This document shows positions 1,737 to 36,454 of a stretch of DNA of 64,000 nucleotides, piece by piece (positions within the stretch are counted from its first letter, which is position 1; every line of letters begins with the position of its first letter). The position numbers and the translations under genes are program-made. The notes beneath the pieces were generated by a model, which searched no databases, had not been told where the DNA came from, and worked only from the letters and a program-made list of their open reading frames with translations. The DNA is from a bacterium. Its GTDB lineage: Bacteria > UBA8248. Where the stretch lies: assembly GCA_965207065.1 (NCBI GenBank), contig OZ242260.1, forward strand, positions 544,001 to 608,000. Reading direction: 5' to 3'.

Positions 1737-2879
1737 TTGGAATTTGCTTTTAACGAGCGCCAGGAACTCATGCGCCGCACGCTGCATGAGCTTCTGGAGC
1801 GGGTCTGTCCCCCTGAATACGCAATGGATTGTGACAAGAAGGGCGACGCTCCCGTCGAGGCATACAAGGCCTTGGCTGATGATGGCTGGATAGGCGTATC
1901 CACGCCAGAGGAATACGGCGGCATGGGAGGCGACGCGCTCGATCTGGCCCTAGTCCTGGAAACGGCAGGCATGCACTATCTGGACCTCGCCACCATGATC
2001 TTCAGAAACGTCTGCTACGGTGTGGACGCCCTCCTCGTCAGTGGAACAGATGCCCAGAAAAATGACTTCATCCCCGCCACCATCCAGGGAGAGAAGTATT
2101 TCGCATTTAGTCTCACCGAACCCGACGCCGGCTCAGACGCCGCGGCCATCATCGCCCGCGCGGACCGCGAAGAAGACCGCTTCCGTCTCACGGGCACGAA
2201 AAACTTCACTTCCGGCATGCCGACGGCCACGCATATCCTCGTCGCCGCGCGAACGGACAACTCGGGCGCCAAGCACGAGGGCATCACGAATTTCATCATC
2301 CCTGCCGACGCCGAGGGCGTCACCTGGTCGAAGCTCGATTTGCTCGGCCACCGGGCGATGGGCACCTGCGTGGCGCATTATGACGCCGTGGAGGCGGGCA
2401 TAGACGACGTTCTAGGGGAGGTGGGGGACGGCTGGCAAGGCCTGATGGCGTACATTACCACCGAGCGTCTGTGCCTCTCCGCAGCGCGAACGGGCGCGGC
2501 GGCGGCCGCTCTTGAGCTGGCTCTGAGTCACGCGAAGGAGAGGAAACAGTTCGGCCGCCCCATCGGCAAGTTCCAGGCCGTCAGCCACATGCTCACTGAG
2601 ATGCACATGCTCGTCGACACGGCGCGGCTCCAGGTTTACCGGTTCGCCTGGCTGGTCTCGCAGGGAAAAGCGGGGCGCATCGAGGCGGCGACACTCAAGC
2701 TCTACGCTGGAGAGGCATATAAGCGGGTGGCCGACCTGGGCGTTCAGGTGATGGGCGGGTACGGCTACAGCGGAGAATACGCCATGGAGCGTCACTACCG
2801 CGACGCGCGTCTGGCCACTATCGGCGCGGGCACGAGCGAGGTGCAGAGAAACATCATCGCCAAGGCCCTGGGGTTGTAG
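1737..2879 (+). CDS. Acyl-CoA dehydrogenase family protein
   Basis: FSLTEPDAGSD, RKQFGRPIGKFQAV, QVMGGYGY, IGAGTSEVQR motifs; TTG start after GAGGT. Confidence 0.92.
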   Translation: MEFAFNERQELMRRTLHELLERVCPPEYAMDCDKKGDAPVEAYKALADDGWIGVSTPEEYGGMGGDALDLALVLETAGMHYLDLATMIFRNVCYGVDALLVSGTDAQKNDFIPATIQGEKYFAFSLTEPDAGSDAAAIIARADREEDRFRLTGTKNFTSGMPTATHILVAARTDNSGAKHEGITNFIIPADAEGVTWSKLDLLGHRAMGTCVAHYDAVEAGIDDVLGEVGDGWQGLMAYITTERLCLSAARTGAAAAALELALSHAKERKQFGRPIGKFQAVSHMLTEMHMLVDTARLQVYRFAWLVSQGKAGRIEAATLKLYAGEAYKRVADLGVQVMGGYGYSGEYAMERHYRDARLATIGAGTSEVQRNIIAKALGL

Positions 2880-2972
2880 GAATTTCGCTGAGGATGCTTG
2901 AAGATTTCCCCAAAAGAACCGAAACTGAAGACTATCCAAACGATAAAGCGATTATCTTGAGGAAGCGAATTC

Positions 2973-3440
2973 ATGCCGTTGGATAAAAGCGTACTGGAGA
3001 GAACCTTCCCAGATTTCGAATTCCGGGTCGAACGCGGCAAAATCAGGGAATACGCTCTCGTCCTGGGGCTTACCGACCCGGTGCACACGGATGTGGAGGC
3101 CGCACGAGCCGCGGGTTTTGATGATCTGCTTGCTCCGCCGACGTTCGTGCGCCAGTTCTGGCACGAAAATCCCGAGAACGACCCCATGCCCCATCTCGGC
3201 TACGACCCCAAGCGCCGTCTCCACGGGGAGCAGGAATTCGAATACCACAAGCCCCTGGTCGCCGGCATGAACCTTAAGGGGCAAAACGCCATCGTCTCCA
3301 CCCGCGAGAAGGAAGGCCGCCGGGGCGGGATGATGACCTTCGTCGTAATCGAAACCAGATTCTTGGACGAGACGGGCGAACTGGTTCAGGTGGCGAGGCG
3401 AACTCTCATCGAGACCGCGGCCCCACCCAAAGAGGCCTGA
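2973..3440 (+). CDS. MaoC-like dehydratase N-terminal-type hot-dog protein
   Basis: VERGKIREYA, DPVHTD..AARAAGF..APPTF, LHGEQEFEYHKPL. Confidence 0.88.
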   Translation: MPLDKSVLERTFPDFEFRVERGKIREYALVLGLTDPVHTDVEAARAAGFDDLLAPPTFVRQFWHENPENDPMPHLGYDPKRRLHGEQEFEYHKPLVAGMNLKGQNAIVSTREKEGRRGGMMTFVVIETRFLDETGELVQVARRTLIETAAPPKEA

Positions 3441-3900: not shown

Positions 3901-5112
3901 ATGCTGGCAGGCTACCGCATCCTCGATCTTGGACAGGTTATCGCAGGCACCATCGGCAGCATGATTCTCGCCGACATGGGCGCCGAGGTCATCAAGGTCG
4001 AATCTCCCCAGGGCGATATCGGGCGCAACCCCGCCATTGCGGGCATCGGCCCCGTTTCGAGCATCTTCCTCACCTTCAACCGGGGAAAGAAGGGCATCGT
4101 CATCGACCTGAAAAAGCCCGAAGGCAAGGAAGTGTTCTTGGACCTGGTGGAAAAATCAGACGCCGTGATGGTGAACTTCAGGCCCGGCACGATGGATCGG
4201 CTGGGACTTGGATATGACGTCATGAAGCGGAGAAACCCCGACATCGTGTTCGTCGATTCGAGCGGATACGGGGAACAAGGCCCCTGGCGCGATAAACCGG
4301 CCTTCGATCTCGTCGAACAGGCCGTAAGCGGCCACATGGCCATCACAGGCGAGCCGAACCGCCCGCCCGCCAGGAACGGCTCGCCCACGGCAGATATCTC
4401 TACAGCCCTCTACACCGCCATCGCCTGTATGGCGGGCTTGCTGGCCAAGGCGAAAGGAAGAAGCGGAGCCCACCTCGAAGTGCCGATGTTCGACGTCCAA
4501 CTCGCCATGCTCGGCTATATTTCGACCATGTATCTCAACAACGGCGATATTCCCGAGCCGCCCGGCAACGCGCATGAGTACATGGTGCCCTACCAGGCGT
4601 TTCCGACGGCCACGATCTACATCGTACTCTCCCCACGCGAGGAACGTTTTTGGAAAAAGATGTGCGAGGTCATGGGAATGGCCGAACTGGCTGACGACCC
4701 GCGCTTCCGCACGAACGACCTGCGCTCCGAGAACAGGGACGTCCTTCTGCCCATTATGGAAGAAATTCTCATGACCCGCTCGGGCGAGGAGTGGATTGAA
4801 CTCTTCGAGGCGGCGGGGGTGCCCTCCGCACCTGTTAACCCGCTCGATCGAGCACTCGACAATGAGCAGGTCGAGGCGAGGCGTCTCATTAGAGAATATG
4901 AATACCCCGAAGTCGGAACGGTAAAAATTGTGGGCAACCCCATCCTGAACCGCACGGAAAACGGAAACCCGGACCCAGAACCCGCTCCCCTTCACGGGGG
5001 CGATTCCGAGGACATACTCCGCGAGCTTCTTCATTACAAGGATGAACAAATCCACACACTCATCGATTCCAGGGTGGTCATCGCTACCGGCTCCGAAGTT
5101 TCCAAAAAATAA
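3901..5112 (+). CDS. CaiB/BaiF family (class III) CoA-transferase
   Basis: LAGYRILDL, LADMGAEVIKVESP.GD, FNRGKK, NFRPG, LADDPRF motifs. Confidence 0.92.
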   Translation: MLAGYRILDLGQVIAGTIGSMILADMGAEVIKVESPQGDIGRNPAIAGIGPVSSIFLTFNRGKKGIVIDLKKPEGKEVFLDLVEKSDAVMVNFRPGTMDRLGLGYDVMKRRNPDIVFVDSSGYGEQGPWRDKPAFDLVEQAVSGHMAITGEPNRPPARNGSPTADISTALYTAIACMAGLLAKAKGRSGAHLEVPMFDVQLAMLGYISTMYLNNGDIPEPPGNAHEYMVPYQAFPTATIYIVLSPREERFWKKMCEVMGMAELADDPRFRTNDLRSENRDVLLPIMEEILMTRSGEEWIELFEAAGVPSAPVNPLDRALDNEQVEARRLIREYEYPEVGTVKIVGNPILNRTENGNPDPEPAPLHGGDSEDILRELLHYKDEQIHTLIDSRVVIATGSEVSKK

Positions 5113-32273: not shown

Positions 32274-33749
32274 TTAAGGCCCAACGACCCGAATGGGCCG
32301 CCTGTCCCTTAGCTGGTTGATGGCGCTCACCACCACCCGCTCGCCCACTCGCAGACCCTCGAGAATCTCGATACGCCCGTCGATCATCTCGCCCAGGCGC
32401 ACCTCGCGGCGCACCGCCATGAAGCGTAGACCGCTCCTCCCTGCGCCGCGCCCGCTCGCCTCGGCCATACCTCTGCGCGCACCGCCTCTCATGCCGGGGC
32501 CGCCCTGCCCGCCCCCGCGCGCATCACCTCTTCTTGCGCGACCACCGCTCCCCGCTCCCCTCTGTAACCTTCTCACGACGAAGACCGCGCCCGACTTCGT
32601 GCGCAAATCCCCGTCCCAGATCACGGCGTGAACCGGCAGGTTGATCGAGCGCCTGCCCAACAGGGGGTCGAACTTCACGCGGGCGAGAAGACCGGGCCTC
32701 AGGGAAGAATCGGGATTTTGAACGTCCACCTCCACGATGAGCTGGCGCGAACTGGGGTCCACGCTCGGGAATATGCGCGTCAGCTTCCCCGAGAATGTGC
32801 GGCCCCGATAGGCGTCGAGTTCGACGCGCGCACCCTGGCCTATCTTGATGAGCGGGAGATCCAGTTCGCTCACCCGAACCCGTGCGCGCAGCGTGTCCGT
32901 CTGGGCGATGGTGAACAGATGCGCCCGGTTCACCGCCAGATCGCCTGGTTCGATTCTTCTCGCGGTGACGACGCCCGAAATCGGTGAGCGGACGTTGAAG
33001 TATTCCAGTTCCACCTTGAGCCGTCTCACGCGCTGCAGATGCTGGCTCACCTGCGCCTGCGCCATGGCAACCTCCTCGGCGCGCGCGCCTATCTTCACCA
33101 ACTTGAGCTTTTCTTGCGCGACCCTCACGCGAGCGGCGTCTTCGGCGAGGCGCGCGCGGCGCTCGGCCACGTCCGCGCGGGCGCGATTCGCCTCCGTCGT
33201 CACCTTGCGCCATTCCTGTGCGCTGATGACGCCTGTTTTGTGTAAAGCGCCAAGAGAGCGCGCGTTGGCCTCCGCTTCCTCCTGTCTGGCGAGGGCGGAG
33301 GTAATTTCCGCCTCGCTGCGCTTGCGTGTAGCCTCCGCCTGGGTGACGGCAGCGGCGGCGGCGGCGATTTCCTCCGGGCGGCTTCCGGATTTGAGTTTCG
33401 CAAGGTTTGCCCGCGCGGCGGCGAGTTCACTCTCCGCCAGCTTCAAGTCAATTCGTTTGATGGTGGAGTCAAGGCGCGAGAGGATTTGATCCTTTTTCAC
33501 GCGTGAACCCTCTCGGGCCAGGACTTCGCGCACCTGACCCTCGGCGCGGGACATGAGCCGCACCTCGCTCCGGGCCAGGAGCGTTCCCGTAGCCGCCACG
33601 CGCCTGCCCAGACGACCCACGGAAACCTTTTGCACCTGAACCGTGACGATGCGGTTTCTCCGCCCTCTGGGGCGGCCCGCGTAGGCGCAGGTGAACTCAC
33701 CCGCAGCTATGAACACCATGATGAGCACGGCGACTGTTCTTGCAGACAT
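32274..33749 (-). CDS. RND efflux periplasmic adaptor (MFP)
   Basis: ATGTL, GSRPEEI coiled coil, VRSPISG, LRPGL, GL..GERVV; Gly/Arg-rich insertion near the C-terminus. Start at 33749 inferred. Confidence 0.85.
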   Translation of the reverse strand: MSARTVAVLIMVFIAAGEFTCAYAGRPRGRRNRIVTVQVQKVSVGRLGRRVAATGTLLARSEVRLMSRAEGQVREVLAREGSRVKKDQILSRLDSTIKRIDLKLAESELAAARANLAKLKSGSRPEEIAAAAAAVTQAEATRKRSEAEITSALARQEEAEANARSLGALHKTGVISAQEWRKVTTEANRARADVAERRARLAEDAARVRVAQEKLKLVKIGARAEEVAMAQAQVSQHLQRVRRLKVELEYFNVRSPISGVVTARRIEPGDLAVNRAHLFTIAQTDTLRARVRVSELDLPLIKIGQGARVELDAYRGRTFSGKLTRIFPSVDPSSRQLIVEVDVQNPDSSLRPGLLARVKFDPLLGRRSINLPVHAVIWDGDLRTKSGAVFVVRRLQRGAGSGGRARRGDARGGGQGGPGMRGGARRGMAEASGRGAGRSGLRFMAVRREVRLGEMIDGRIEILEGLRVGERVVVSAINQLRDRRPIRVVGP

Positions 33750-33927
33750 CTTCTCGCGGCTCCCGAAAGAGAAACCCGGCGACGAACCATTCATGCGACG
33801 GATGTGAAAAAACGACGCAAACGATCTTATCACATACCACGGGTGTTCTCTTTTGGACGCAAACGGGTTCCTGGGTGGAGAGAGGTTTGGGTAACGGCGA
33901 GCTAAGATGTGTAAAAACCTTCGTTCC

Positions 33928-35124
33928 TCAAATAGACGACAGCCATTCATCTCCAGGCATGATTCGCCGCATGAATTCATCAAACATGGGCACGGTGAAA
34001 GCCGTGTCACCGTGACTTGGACTCCAAATCATGCCCTTGTTGATCAGTTGGCTGCGAACGGGAGCCAGAGAAGTAACCAGGCGGTTCAGTTTTTGGGCGA
34101 CCTCCCCCGAGCGATGAGGCCCCTCACCGAGTTGGGCCATTGCTCGCAGATACTTTTTTTCCGCGGGGGACAGTCTGTCGAACCTGACAAGGAAGAAACT
34201 CTGGTCCAGATTGGCGACGACCTGCCGGGTGGCGATTTCGACATCGGAAACCGTGATGGGAGAACGCTCGGCGACGTCCCATACGTGCTTGCCCCATTCC
34301 TGTAGAAAATAGGGATAACAACGGGTTTTGGAGACAATTTCATCTAGAGCGCGGGGTTCTATTTCCACGTTTTCGTCCCTAGCGGGCTTGGCGAGCGCGA
34401 GTCTGGCATCTTCAGGCAACAATGGACCAATATCAGAAAAATCGAAAAGCCGTTCGGCGTAGGATTTCGCTTTTCCCATGCGACCCCGTACCTGAGGCAG
34501 GCCCGCCCCTAACATGACCACGGGAAGGCGACGCTGGGATATCCGGTGCAACGCGATAATCAAGGCCTCCAGTTGCTCTTCCGGCACGTACTGGAGTTCA
34601 TCGAAGAAAAACGCCACGCAGGTCGCATCCGCCCGGGCGGCAGCGCCGATGGCCTCGAGCAATTCCTGCAAGTCGCTTTCAAGGTTTCCATTGTCCGCCA
34701 GACCGGGTTCGGGATCGGTTTCCAAACCGACTTCTATATCCCGATACTTCACTTTCAATGCCCTTACGAATCCCGCGAGCCCCCTCAAGGCCCTTTGCGC
34801 CAGTTCTTTCGCCGCACGCCTGCGTGAAAGCTTCAACAAAACCGTATGCAGTCGAGGCGCTAAAATGGAGGGTAGCGATTGGTTTTCGGACGCTTCTACC
34901 GACAGCGTATAGATGCCGCTTGCCTCTGCTTCTTCCCGGATGAGGTTCAATAGCACCGTTTTGCCGACCCCACGCAACCCAAGCATCATAGCGCTCTTGG
35001 TCGGGCGTCCTATTCTGGTCCGTTCCAATGCGATTCGCGTGGATTCGCGAACCTCGTCCCGACCAGCCAACTCGGGTGGCGGAGTGCCTGCTCCAGGAGC
35101 ATACGGGTTGCGTATCGGATCCAT
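33928..35124 (-). CDS. AAA-family ATP-binding protein with probable C-terminal winged helix
   Basis: NPYAPGAG.PP..LAGR, Walker A GLRGVGKT, Walker B FFFDELQ, YPYFLQ; C-terminal LSPAEKKYLRAMA..RSGEVA..R..LI.KG. Confidence 0.85.
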   Translation of the reverse strand: MDPIRNPYAPGAGTPPPELAGRDEVRESTRIALERTRIGRPTKSAMMLGLRGVGKTVLLNLIREEAEASGIYTLSVEASENQSLPSILAPRLHTVLLKLSRRRAAKELAQRALRGLAGFVRALKVKYRDIEVGLETDPEPGLADNGNLESDLQELLEAIGAAARADATCVAFFFDELQYVPEEQLEALIIALHRISQRRLPVVMLGAGLPQVRGRMGKAKSYAERLFDFSDIGPLLPEDARLALAKPARDENVEIEPRALDEIVSKTRCYPYFLQEWGKHVWDVAERSPITVSDVEIATRQVVANLDQSFFLVRFDRLSPAEKKYLRAMAQLGEGPHRSGEVAQKLNRLVTSLAPVRSQLINKGMIWSPSHGDTAFTVPMFDEFMRRIMPGDEWLSSI

Positions 35125-35133
35125 AACAAGAGC

Positions 35134-35505
35134 AGTTTATATTAAAATTAGCTAATTTACAATTATTTCATAAGATAGCTAATTTCGCTATATATCAAGA
35201 AATTTGGACACCAAGATGGCTAATATTTCAAATCGATCGCCCGGTTCCAGCCCGGGCAGACAATTTGCGCTTCGGTTTCATCGAAAGAGTTTATAGCAAA
35301 CTTAGAGAGTTTATGATTATCTTATAAATTAGCTAATATCATTATAAATCATGGATCCTCGCCGCCGGGATATTCATTCCCTCAAAGATTGTTTTGCTAC
35401 GCTCCACTTCAGAAACATCTGAGTTGCACATCGGACCTGGAAAAGAAGTTTATATCTAAGTTAGAGAGTTTATGGTTTTCTTATAAGATAGCTAATTTCG
35501 CTATA
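35134..35505. repeat. Three imperfect 59-bp palindromic direct repeats (35134-35192, 35288-35346, 35447-35505)
   Basis: Consensus AGTTTATA-N6-TTAG-N4-TTTAY-N9-ATAAR-N4-CTAA-N6-TATA; periods 154 and 159 bp; last 23 nt identical in copies 1 and 3. Confidence 0.9.
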
Positions 35506-35584
35506 ATCGAGAAAATCTCTTCATTTAGAATGACTTGCCTAAGATACATACAACAGTCGATAACATTTCAGGGCCGGAGAGACC

Positions 35585-36454
35585 TCAGTCAAGCTTACCG
35601 AGCCACTCGGCGATTGCGCGGCCGATCTCATCCGGAGAATCCTCCTGGATGAAGTGGATCCCCGGTACGGTGACTTCGGTCTGGTTCGGCCAGGTGCGGC
35701 AGAATTCGCGCTGCTCGCCGACGAGGATGGCGCCCGGCTCGGCGTTAATGAGCAGCTTGGGAACGGGAGATTCACGAAGCCAGGCGGCGTAACTGCCGAC
35801 GATTTCGGTTACGTCCGCAGGCTCGCCCTCGATGGGAATCTCGCGCGGCCAGGTGAGTGTCGGGCGGCGGTATTCACCGGGTTCAGAGAAAGGACGCCGG
35901 TACTCGGCCATCTCCTCCTCGCTGAGCCCGCGCTTGATCGACCCGGGCAGCACGCGTTCGACGAACACGTTCTTCTCGAGAATCATGGACTCTCCATTTT
36001 CGGAACGGAATCCCTGAAAAACCCTCTGCGACGCTTCGGGCCATTGCGCCCAGGTGAGCGGCTGCACGATGGCCTCCATGTAGGCGAGGCCCTTCACGGC
36101 GTCGCGGTGCCGGTTGGCCCAGTCGAAGCCCAGGGCCGAGCCCCAGTCGTGCATGACGAGGGTGACGCGCTCGGCGACACCCAAAGCCTCCAGTAGCGCA
36201 TCGAGATAGCGGCGGTGATCCACAAAGCGGTAGCGGCCAGGGCCGCTGTCCTCCAGCTTGTCCGAATCGCCCATGCCGATCAGGTCCGGCGCGATGCAGC
36301 GGCCAAGTGGGGCGAGATGGGGGATAACACCACGCCACAGGAAGGAGGAGGTCGGGTTACCGTGCAGAAAAACGATAGGGTCGCCCTCGCCGGTCTCGAC
36401 GTAGGCCATGACGCGGCCGAGCACTTCCAGGCGCTTCTTCTCAGTCCAAGACAC
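35585..36454 (-). CDS. dhaA: Haloalkane dehalogenase (DhaA/LinB type)
   Basis: [26 protein letters not shown] nucleophile, [17 protein letters not shown]. Confidence 0.93.

Follow-up and report, generated by a model that had tools for sequence, protein, structure and literature searches.

Archaeal origins of replication carry inverted repeats in AT-rich DNA directly upstream of the initiator gene. The lac operators O1, O2 and O3 are auxiliary operators of the autorepression type that work with looping, and the Rep proteins of iteron plasmids bind inverted repeats in the promoter of their own gene. Repeated initiator sites at the initiator's own gene, the DnaA boxes of the dnaA promoter, are described in PMC8203912. 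An Orc1/Cdc6 protein that regulates transcription and is not an initiator, Orc1-2 of Saccharolobus, appears in PMC6061795 and PMC9738581. BrxC, BrxD and DUF499 are treated in PMC12839542 as ORC/Cdc6-clade ATPases of defence systems, some with a winged helix.

The locus described here lies in a window of 64,000 nt, the whole stretch of bacterial DNA that was analysed, and consists of an ATPase gene preceded by three copies of a palindromic unit (Table 1). Our analysis points, with moderate confidence, to a self-contained, probably self-repressed cassette whose promoter-operator and gene 5' end were tandemly duplicated, the copies being kept as auxiliary operators. An earlier reading, made from the letters without database searches (the sequence-only reading), knew of no described system of such architecture; full-text literature searches agreed, and they returned no paper on the ATPase family.

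Table 1. Features of the ATPase locus, with positions in the 64,000-nt window.
Feature	Positions	Strand	Description
ATPase ORF	33928..35124	minus	398 aa; predicted Orc1/Cdc6-like AAA+ with C-terminal winged helix; intact
Inserted cassette, approximate extent	33900..35563		between alpha/beta-hydrolase gene and HlyD-type gene
Proximal unit P (unit 1)	35128..35200	minus	predicted promoter-operator of live gene; same element and geometry in 88 loci
Partial left-half unit copy	35213..35224	minus	12-mer, 92% match to unit
Relic of ATPase 5' end behind unit M	35235..35281	minus	ATG at 35281; aligns to live start, z 3.9
Middle unit M (unit 2)	35282..35354	minus	retained copy of putative operator; all four anchors present
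Relic of ATPase 5' end behind unit D	35400..35440	minus	start codon gone; aligns to live start, z 5.0
Distal unit D (unit 3)	35441..35513	minus	retained copy of putative operator; all four anchors present

The ATPase gene is present in a single copy in the 4,476,866-base genome. Its product has a Walker A motif, GLRGVGKT, at residues 49-56 and a Walker B motif at D175 E176. G49, G52, G54, K55 and D175 are invariant across 118 relatives, which indicates that the AAA+ core is present. Pfam matched the protein to AAA_16 (E 5.5e-16) and AAA_22 (E 2.4e-7). By sequence it belongs neither to Pfam ATPase_2 (PF01637), against which it scored 17.5 bits with a cut-off of 33.2, nor to the Orc1/Cdc6 family TIGR02928, with 17.8 bits and a cut-off of 181.3. 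A sequence search of the PDB gave only P-loop-local matches to ORC4 (E 0.0019). The NCBIfam and PADLOC searches gave only sub-threshold matches, those to BrxD being far under the cut-offs (PADLOC E 0.0028; NCBIfam 13.6 bits against 350), and the ESM Atlas search found only clusters named 'putative ATP-binding protein'.

The structure was modelled with AF2. An earlier model from 10 close sequences was unusable (pLDDT 52.5) and was superseded by one from a 118-sequence alignment (pLDDT 96.8), which places two long helices (84-100 and 103-123) and a loop between strands 72-77 and 170-175. The best Foldseek matches of this model were 2qby_A, 1w5s, 2qen, 2v1u and 2fna, the first of which, 2qby_A, is Orc1/Cdc6 on origin DNA (E 9.9e-11). 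On 2qby_A, 1w5s, 2v1u and 1fnn the model superposes over 405-445 columns (E 1e-10 to 1e-8, TM 0.42-0.52), and the superposition on Orc1/Cdc6 takes in the winged helix and the whole chain. The modelled fold is Orc1/Cdc6-like, AAA+ plus winged helix. The likeness to Orc1/Cdc6 that the sequence-only reading pointed to is one of predicted fold, and does not extend to membership by sequence.

The family is large. Using phmmer, 7,437 cluster representatives matched at E <= 0.001 and 1,001 at E <= 1e-30, and a collection with one genome per species yielded at least 554 confirmed matches, counted as stretches of DNA. The nearest relatives are 67-89% identical over many phyla. The phage collection held one match, 42% identical, on a record of 5,855 bases. 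No neighbour gene is conserved, the most widely common neighbour family being found at no more than 7/81 loci, and a recombinase or other gene travelling with the cassette was not seen among these 81 loci. The extent of the cassette was obtained by setting the locus against that of the sister species G022, where the slot is empty and without a unit. Horizontal transfer has spread the ATPase as a single accessory gene, and the locus is best read as a self-contained single-gene cassette.

Several other identities of the cassette were considered and rejected. The units are not terminal inverted repeats of an IS or MITE, nor a known IS end, which the sequence-only reading had listed as a possible refutation: the genome-wide profile search confined them to one locus in 4.48 Mb, and the cassette has no transposase. 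An integron-type cassette does not fit a site that is 5' and over promoter-like boxes, with no common neighbour gene and with arrays made only of stubs of the same gene. Terminal repeats and a target-site duplication were looked for by eye where the island begins and ends; the 7-nt ATCTTAG that G000 has on each side was rejected because sister species do not share it. A UvrD-type helicase, a DNA methylase, a phage portal, HipA and DUF4143 were seen among the neighbours, which are mostly metabolic; an association with defence islands is unsupported, since Pfam found no family in more than 3/75 proteins of either of two neighbour sets (150 proteins in total).

The upstream regions of relatives were compared in an alignment, A2, of 88 loci from MAGs, drawn from a collection with one genome per species and labelled as Nitrospinota, Chloroflexota, Latescibacterota, Binatia, Planctomycetota, Spirochaetia, Verrucomicrobia, Proteobacteria and others. 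In 88/88 aligned loci a unit of ~65 nt precedes the start codon by a constant distance, so the absence of the motif upstream of homologous genes, which would have spoken against the sequence-only reading, is contradicted. On this alignment the element is inherited together with the gene. The anchors TTA/TTA/TAA/TAA are present in 83/88 loci; the inner anchor spacing is 14 nt in 83/83, the distance from the last anchor to a TAT box is 9 nt in 83/83, and the TAT box lies 6-12 nt from the start codon in 82/83. Overall the repeat cores are spaced by 9-10, 14 and 9-10 nt. The -10-like box reads TATAAA or TATAAT in 55/88 loci, with TG ahead of it in 41/88, and a -35-like TTGTAA box is found in 52/88, the geometry of the alignment leaving a spacer of only 15-16 nt between the two. 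A Shine-Dalgarno-like word was found in the gap between box and start codon in 0/88 loci. A palindrome that covers the -35/-10-like region of its own gene and is conserved with that gene is the arrangement of a putative autorepressor, the boxes being consensus-like only.

The variable bases of the repeats co-vary within a locus. This was seen for the outer-left and inner-left repeats, which are direct (z 4.4), and for the two outer repeats, which are inverted (z 6.8); 0/2000 shuffles reached the observed values. The arms are 76.7% complementary versus 71.0 +/- 0.6 in shuffles, and doubly changed cells number 202 versus 116 +/- 9, a count reached in 0/500 shuffles. Co-variation of direct as well as inverted repeats would fit one protein reading all four. 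Mutual information between winged-helix residues and operator bases gave no clean signal, the top columns being scattered protein-wide and confounded by relatedness. A profile of the 88-locus unit was made from these same upstream regions and its matches there are circular; independent support for the element is given by the alignment itself, by a three-unit profile and by a strict pattern with a reversed control. Two relatives carried by plasmids (60-66% identical) have the TAT box only 1 nt upstream of the ATG or overlapping it, where it cannot serve as a -10 for that start.

At the locus itself, 65-nt repeat copies were found at 35128-35192, 35282-35346 and 35441-35505, spaced by 154 and 159 bp and with 69% and 78% identity to the reference copy. 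Each unit is an imperfect palindrome, and the three palindromic units ahead of an intact gene are as the sequence-only reading had described them. Unit 1 has arms of 22 nt (35138-35159 and 35171-35192) that are 77% complementary with 11 nt between them. Of its four TTA-core repeats two are direct and two inverted; it also contains a TTGTAA box and a TATAAA box with 11 nt to the ATG. The ATPase start codon lies 3-9 nt past this unit and the sequence has no Shine-Dalgarno ahead of it, again in agreement with what had been read. The -35-like box is altered to TCATAA in unit M and is CCATAA in unit D. A half-site had been placed near 35212-35229; it was located as the 12-mer in Table 1, and a counterpart was found in L008 only. 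G+C is 0.35-0.39 over the units, 0.50-0.60 over the gene and 0.62-0.70 in the flanks. Tandem Repeats Finder gave no rows for the unit region, as the copies are too diverged, and an Rfam search up to E 1 gave no match. The genome scan that the sequence-only reading had proposed, run with the three-unit profile, returned these three places only (E 3.5e-17 to 1.6e-15). One weak, different site, a second-type solo unit, lies at 4,070,837 of G000. The three-unit stretch is present in other strains: among contigs of other public runs, one of 14,241 nt covers 33300-35855 with 58 differences and 3 gaps, and a second of 1,733 nt covers 33739-35470, comprising units 1, 2 and part of 3.

Behind units 2 and 3 the DNA resembles the start of the live gene, as had been claimed. 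Alignments of the 60 nt after each unit to the live gene start beat shuffles (z in Table 1), 1/500 shuffles being as high in each case, and 35407-35435 pairs with 35091-35119 of the live gene over 29 nt (72%). The reading MKPKRKLSARAGT at 35281 is as the earlier note wrote it; its reading frame is not kept in sister species. The relic similarity is in register and the period of the units is 154-165 bp in 9 genomes. By these alignments, the distal units and relics are products of duplicating the element together with the gene 5' end.

Nine genomes of the genus were compared in 36 pairs, of which 10 served for the D units and the M-D spacers. Between-species identity is 0.85 for P, 0.76 for M and 0.79 for D, versus 0.56 and 0.60 for the spacers with relics and 0.705 for ATPase four-fold sites. 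The shuffle baseline is 0.546 +/- 0.034, and the relic spacers are at this baseline; the palindromes have outlasted the relics, as the sequence-only reading had held. In our own reading of the unit sequences the four anchors stand at exact spacing in 14/14 distal units. The TTGTAA box is found in 0/14 distal units versus 9/9 proximal ones, and 3/14 distal units have a TAT box that is missing or has moved. Because they are more conserved than both relic DNA and synonymous sites, the extra units are, on this comparison, retained by selection. Part of this apparent conservation could come from gene conversion between units, since M units are no closer to orthologous M units (0.762) than to P of other species (0.756). 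Distal units are not simply copied from P, as a distal-type sequence (nnATAA, ACTCTCTAA) is common to several species and differs from P. The comparison of unit number across related genomes, also proposed earlier, gave 1-3 units per locus. Members of the genus have often lost the ATPase gene or carry it broken, so its role is dispensable.

Taken as a mechanism, the self-repressed cassette would work as follows. ATPase protomers would bind the four TTA-core repeats and so shut their own promoter, and the nucleotide state of the ATPase would set its affinity for the repeats. The repeats overlie the TTGTAA (-35-like) and TATAAA/T (-10-like, often TG-extended) boxes, and since the -10-like box ends 6-11 nt ahead of the start codon, an mRNA with little or no leader is predicted. 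In the genus ancestor a piece of ~156 bp, made up of the element and ~85 nt of coding start, was tandemly duplicated. Unequal crossing-over between copies would then have shifted their number to the one to three of today with the period unchanged. The coding relics would have decayed neutrally. The extra elements have lost TTGTAA and kept the four repeat cores under purifying selection, which makes auxiliary operators their most likely role. Such operators would raise local occupancy or allow repression by a complex that is looped or of higher order; a spacing of ~156 bp is about 15 helical turns.

It is unlikely, in our view, that the cassette is a portable ORC-type recognition module with a task other than self-control. 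Such a module would be a minimal initiator with its origin, or a sensor or competitor of foreign origins (a single-gene immunity or addiction element), with the element as its loading site and the arrays as platforms for a higher-order ATPase complex. It also seems to us quite improbable that the units are origin-recognition-box-like sites, with the cassette pairing an ORC-type initiator and an origin, as a minimal replicon or as an element that interferes with replication, and with the arrays serving as multi-site loading platforms. This reading would agree with a predicted fold that is that of Orc1/Cdc6 bound to origin DNA, with inverted repeats in an AT-rich stretch directly upstream of an initiator-like gene, and with the presence of the family on 106/72,556 plasmid records, including those of cultivable Sphingobium, Azoarcus and Rhodococcus. 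However, the carrier plasmids are large and have replicon typing of their own, the cassette is single, chromosomal and among ordinary metabolic genes, and the TIGR02928 score is far below the cut-off. The repeats lie over promoter-like boxes whose distance from the start codon is fixed, an arrangement in keeping with gene control. No circle-like contig joint was seen, contigs being a poor test.

The sequence-only reading had also offered the palindrome as a recombination or integration site at which cassettes replace one another, each leaving a unit and a stub of the old gene. Extra units do occur in 6/78 loci outside the genus (L032, L034, L037, L047, L058 and L085), 76-100 bp upstream and/or downstream of the gene stop, and the gene of L047 lies between copies of a repeat at least 64 nt long. 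Solo units without the gene were found in G014, G019, G012 and elsewhere, the array region differs strongly in a pair of species with 91-98% identity in the flanking genes, and the ATPase alleles of the genus are mosaic, with one left breakpoint at about +78 nt, near the relic end. The other breakpoints, however, are near +50, +135, +190, +440 and +680 nt and are not site-specific, the cassette is accompanied by no recombinase or other gene in the neighbour comparison, and the empty site of G022 is without a unit. The constant stub and period are explained more simply by one tandem duplication followed by unequal crossing-over. In G014, where the counterpart of unit D survives alone, deletion of a G000-like locus is the simplest account. 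On these grounds serial replacement of paralogues at a dedicated recombination site is not supported, and we consider it improbable.

It is likewise improbable that the distal units, instead of binding protein, act as additional promoters or give rise to upstream or divergent transcripts in which the palindromes form RNA structure. The TATAAA box is kept in 11/14 distal units, and in units 1 and 2 the promoter scan found opposite-strand sites of the TTTATA-16-TACAAT type. One RNA library has a 202-nt contig over 35011-35212, which takes in the gene start and the whole of unit 1. If this contig is RNA, and the library may hold DNA, some transcripts would begin upstream of unit 1, which would count against a purely leaderless message. 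The sequencing runs are contigs that give no transcript ends, strands or copy numbers, and parts that an RNA run leaves uncovered are no evidence. Against extra promoters, the TTGTAA box is gone in 14/14 distal units, and the consensus promoter scan is at chance, with no site on the gene strand and 2 sites versus 2.0 +/- 1.6 in shuffles; terminator counts are also at shuffle level. The outcome of this promoter scan, like the short spacer between the -35-like and -10-like boxes, counts against the preferred reading as well. RNA structure is opposed by the direct repeats, which co-vary as strongly as the inverted ones, as a hairpin does not predict, and by the empty Rfam search.

That the extra units are functionless, neutral leftovers of a recent duplication has little probability: the coding relics are clearly decaying, unit number varies among species and the AT-rich, low-complexity units inflate identity, as the baseline indicates, but the distal units exceed four-fold sites with the spacers at baseline, all 14 keep the four anchors at exact spacing, and their sequence type is common across species and unlike P.

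The preferred reading, a self-repressed cassette with retained operator copies, concerns a large family that is strikingly conserved across phyla and annotated merely as 'ATP-binding protein'. A portable control element with no Shine-Dalgarno would be a clean model for expression and regulation in any host after transfer. The genus offers a natural series of one, two and three putative operator copies under selection, a ready test for cooperative multi-site use by an ORC-like ATPase. Relatives on the plasmids of the cultivable hosts named above make binding and reporter work feasible.

Compared with archaeal Orc1/Cdc6 proteins (2qby, 2v1u, 1w5s), the model has the same AAA+ base, lid and C-terminal winged helix, and inverted repeats in AT-rich DNA again lie directly upstream of the gene. 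The bacterial ATPase differs in being only 14-18% identical to those structures and below the TIGR02928 cut-off, and in being a single accessory gene, spread horizontally, with its sites over its own predicted promoter. To our knowledge no replication or damage-response role is known for the family. The best overall superposition of the model is on archaeal ATPase_2 proteins (PF01637; 2qen, 2fna), with TM 0.56-0.57 by query and 0.62-0.64 by target. These are of equal size, have the same ATPase-plus-winged-helix layout and are likewise uncharacterised, but the ATPase is no member of that family by its Pfam score, and we know of no conserved self-operator for ATPase_2 proteins. With BrxC, BrxD and DUF499 it shares the AAA+ clade and weak BrxD profile matches; unlike them, it has no BREX or other defence partners nearby in the neighbour scans, and the matches are far below cut-offs. 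In its putative sites over its own promoter, its distant copies kept by selection and its direct and inverted repeats of one short word, the locus resembles lac O1/O2/O3, the dnaA boxes and the iteron Rep systems. It differs from all of these in that the putative auxiliary sites were born by duplicating the promoter with the gene 5' end, the predicted regulator is an ORC-like ATPase, and the whole module is portable between phyla.

The intact ATPase gene of the window is preceded by a 450-bp stretch in which the G+C content falls to 0.35-0.39, versus 0.595 for the genome. A repeat search recovered the three units that had been read from the sequence alone, spaced at 154 and 159 bp. Each contains an imperfect palindrome, and identity to the reference copy is 69% and 78% for the other two. 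Behind units 2 and 3, a stretch of 60 nt aligned in register to the live gene start (z 3.9 and 5.0, respectively), with scores reached by 1/500 shuffles each, confirming that relics of the ATPase 5' end lie behind both. A profile built from the three units matched only this locus in the 4,476,866-base genome, where the ATPase gene is also single-copy, and an Rfam search gave no match. On these results the original observation was correct in all checkable parts. Taken at its longest, with a GTG at 34010, the ORF of the downstream HlyD-type gene would share 83 nt (33928-34010) with the ATPase 3' end; an ATG near 33795 is the likelier start.

ATPase gene and palindromic units identified in the window
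Feature	Coordinates	Strand	Length	Basis
ATPase ORF, intact	33928-35124	minus	398 codons	ORF call
Unit 1 (proximal)	35128-35192	minus	65 nt	repeat search
Unit 2 (middle)	35282-35346	minus	65 nt	repeat search
Unit 3 (distal)	35441-35505	minus	65 nt	repeat search

Pfam assigned the ATPase to generic P-loop families only (AAA_16, 5.5e-16; AAA_22, 2.4e-7). The ATPase_2 score was below the family threshold, and the Orc1/Cdc6, RuvB and BrxD matches from NCBIfam and PADLOC were all sub-threshold. Judged by sequence thresholds, the protein lies outside the curated Orc1/Cdc6 and ATPase_2 families. An AlphaFold model was built from a 118-sequence alignment (pLDDT 96.8, pTM 0.92). Foldseek ranked first 2qby_A, the Orc1/Cdc6 heterodimer on origin DNA (E 9.9e-11), followed by A. 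pernix ORC2 and ORC1, the archaeal Walker-type ATPases 2qen and 2fna, eukaryotic ORC subunits, and RuvB. The alignment shows invariant Walker A residues, an invariant Walker B aspartate (D175) and a nearly invariant E176. By fold the protein is thus an Orc1/Cdc6-like ATPase with a winged helix, so that the resemblance to Orc1/Cdc6 first suggested by gene layout holds at the level of predicted fold.

A search of 5.8 billion proteins gave significant scores for 8,000/8,000 scored candidates, and the best 120 of at least 8,000 relatives show 75-100% identity, almost all with a length of 398 aa. When cluster representatives at 50% identity were searched exhaustively, 7,437 matched at E ≤0.001 and 1,001 at E ≤1e-30. 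From 600 candidates in a one-genome-per-species collection, at least 554 ATPase stretches were confirmed. The best 80 of these are full length, 67-88% identical, and come from MAGs labeled Nitrospinota, Dehalococcoidia and other Chloroflexota, Latescibacterota, Binatia, Thermodesulfobacteriota, Planctomycetota, Spirochaetia, Verrucomicrobia, Alpha-, Beta- and Gammaproteobacteria, and others. Relatives were also found on 106/72,556 plasmid records, annotated 'ATP-binding protein' or 'AAA family ATPase', and on one phage record. Spurious ATPase-overlapping frames aside, no neighboring gene family was common to more than 7/81 loci. A Pfam census of 150 flanking proteins yielded mostly metabolic genes, with no family in more than 3/75 proteins of either of two sets. 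A UvrD-type helicase gene starts ~20-70 nt past the ATPase stop codon in about 7/81 loci (L036 4201-6270, with similar starts in L026, L040, L061, L069, L086 and L092).

The 85 nt upstream of the ATPase start codon were aligned for 88 loci, of which 9 belong to the window genus and 79 were found by scanning the collection; a further locus with only 13 nt upstream was left out. The palindrome noticed in the window recurs upstream of homologous ATPase genes, a single architecture being shared by 88/88 loci. It consists, from left to right, of an outer box (TTTATAG or TTTGAn), two TTA repeats, a short center, two TAA repeats, TATAAA/T, and the start codon. The four anchors, which are the TTA/TTA/TAA/TAA cores of the repeats, are exact in 83/88 loci. 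Of the other five loci, L043, L067 and L089 each differ by one base in a single anchor, and in L072 and L093 the outer-left anchor is not TTA as aligned. Among the 83, the first spacing is 9 nt in 73 loci and 10 nt in 10, the inner spacing is 14 nt in 83/83, and the third is 9 nt in 59, 10 nt in 23 and 18 nt in one. The last anchor lies 9 nt from the TAT box in 83/83, and 6-12 nt separate that box from the start codon in 82/83. The box is TATAAA or TATAAT in 55/88 loci and preceded by TG in 41/88, and the inner-right repeat is TTGTAA in 52/88. A Shine-Dalgarno-like word between box and start codon was found in 0/88 loci.

The palindrome arms have 76.7% complementary cells (shuffles, 71.0 ± 0.6; slid registers, 34-48%) and 202 doubly changed cells (shuffles, 116 ± 9), figures that come from related, non-independent loci and are not probabilities. 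Variable bases co-vary between direct repeats as well as inverted ones (z 4.4 to 6.8 in 4/6 repeat pairs, 0/2000 shuffles as high; related loci, again not probabilities), as predicted for four sites read by one protein and unlike the prediction for a hairpin. The main proposal made from the sequence alone is thereby partly supported: the palindrome is the ATPase gene's own conserved control element, and the ATPase is its predicted binding protein.

Two loci depart from the usual arrangement. In L011, from G044 in a different family within the class, the gene for an IS1595-family transposase (2744-3430; DDE_Tnp_IS1595, E 5.5e-24) lies between the unit and the start codon, putting 744 nt between the ATPase and its control element. 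In L018 (1400-1500, G021) the start codon of a distant paralogue, 48% identical, is preceded by a wider palindrome of different build, CTAGCAAGTTTAT and, after about 50 nt, ATAAACTTGCTAG, which uses the AGTTTAT word as well.

The promoter assignment of the unit is putative and only consensus-based; a promoter scan did not flag it, with site counts at chance level. In two plasmid relatives the TAT box is 1 nt before the ATG or overlaps it, so in these two the outer box belongs to the palindrome and cannot serve that start as a -10. Contigs from public runs matched the stretch over all three units (14,241 nt) and over units 1, 2 and part of 3 (1,733 nt). One metatranscriptome contained contigs over 34588-34991 and 35011-35212, and in that run no close-match contig was found for the neighboring hydrolase and HlyD genes. 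The 35011-35212 contig (202 nt, 4 differences) covers the beginning of the ATPase gene and the whole of unit 1. We take these contigs as a weak hint that the gene is expressed and a hint that some transcripts include unit 1, which would not fit a strictly leaderless message.

An ATPase match was found in 14/22 sister genomes, mostly in the same slot after the alpha/beta-hydrolase gene. In the sister species G022 the hydrolase orthologue (86% identical) adjoins the HlyD-side flank, and both units and ATPase are missing. Because this slot is empty, the cassette of gene and units must have been inserted or deleted as one discrete piece of about 1.35-1.7 kb. Unit number was compared as the sequence-only reading had suggested, and the nine genomes with usable upstream sequence have two or three units with a period of 154-165 bp. 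Between-species identity, from 36 pairs (10 for distal units and middle-distal spacers), was 0.85 for proximal, 0.76 for middle and 0.79 for distal units, 0.56 and 0.60 for the relic-bearing spacers, and 0.705 for four-fold degenerate sites of the ATPase, versus a shuffle baseline of 0.546 ± 0.034 for such AT-rich units. That the palindromes outlast the relic DNA, as had been claimed, favors retention of the extra copies.

Reading of the unit sequences found the four anchors at exact spacing in 14/14 middle and distal units, TTGTAA in 0/14 of these versus 9/9 proximal units, and the TAT box lost or shifted in 3/14. The extra copies therefore keep the apparent binding part and lose the apparent promoter part. 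Orthologous middle units are 0.762 identical to each other versus 0.756 to proximal units of other species. The signal is conservation of motif positions, to which some gene conversion may contribute; against mere copying of the proximal unit speaks the distal-type sequence, which different species have in common. These comparisons indicate that the extra copies are under selection. The ATPase itself is often lost or broken in the genus with units persisting: G013 (L013) is without codons 1-109, G006 (L014/L020) is split in two frames, G017 (L017) has the last 26 codons only, and G005 (L009) has an in-frame TAA.

We propose that a unit plus about 85 nt of coding sequence was duplicated once in tandem, and that unequal crossing-over followed between units, or between a relic and the live gene start. 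A single tandem duplication explains the array, since the relics are in register, of one length and at a constant period. The same process also explains copy-number variation and the 'young' middle unit of L010 and L004, which resembles a proximal one.

The palindrome had also been offered as a recombination site, and several features fit. In two species with hydrolase and ATPase genes 91-98% identical, the array regions are only 42-67% identical, and ATPase alleles are mosaic. Extra units occur in 6/78 loci outside the genus, 76-100 bp upstream and/or past the stop codon of the gene, in one case bracketing the gene (L047). Solo units without the gene occur in G014 (L109), which retains in that slot just the distal unit with 15 nt of relic, and in G019 (L110; one unit), and a second, related unit type lies at another locus in the window's own genome (G000) and in G011, G012, G015 and G017. 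However, the empty G022 slot has no unit, no recombinase accompanies the cassette, and the allele breakpoints are scattered (near +50, +78, +135, +190, +440 and +680). The mosaic alleles reflect homologous exchange of the ordinary kind between relatives that co-occur and do not point to a fixed site; a recombination site is improbable and, as a dedicated mechanism, unsupported.

Some Chloroflexota and Spirochaetia loci have further units beyond the 3' end of the ATPase gene, right after the stop codon in L034, L037 and L085 and farther in L032 and L058. The L047 copies (2856-2919 and 4367-4430) are identical with their flanks (about 120 nt by eye) and form a direct repeat. The second-type unit has four repeats (G000 contig C1 4070837-4070880, outside the window; also L111, L112 and L113) and is solitary, the 1.5 kb around it containing no ATPase. 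In its right half it closely resembles units of Dehalococcoidia loci, L034 among them. It is conserved in G011, G012, G015 and G017, and G015 carries a pair separated by 1.28 kb. In G011 and G012 the gene for a MazE/AbrB-type antitoxin, with a PIN-like ORF after it, is found ~80 nt downstream of the unit.

A full-text literature search, supplementary files aside, found no description of this ATPase family. ORC/Cdc6-clade ATPases serve in BREX-type defence (PMC12839542), but such partner genes are absent beside this ATPase. What the window contributes is an array of tandem operators, the derivation of that array from the 5' end of the gene itself, and evidence that selection keeps the spare operators. 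Archaeal Orc1-2 is reported to be an Orc1-type protein able to act as a transcription regulator (PMC6061795, PMC9738581). The cassette may work like an autorepressed DNA-binding protein with auxiliary operators, binding being predicted, and in layout it is similar to archaeal orc1/cdc6 genes beside their origin boxes and to the Rep genes of iteron plasmids.
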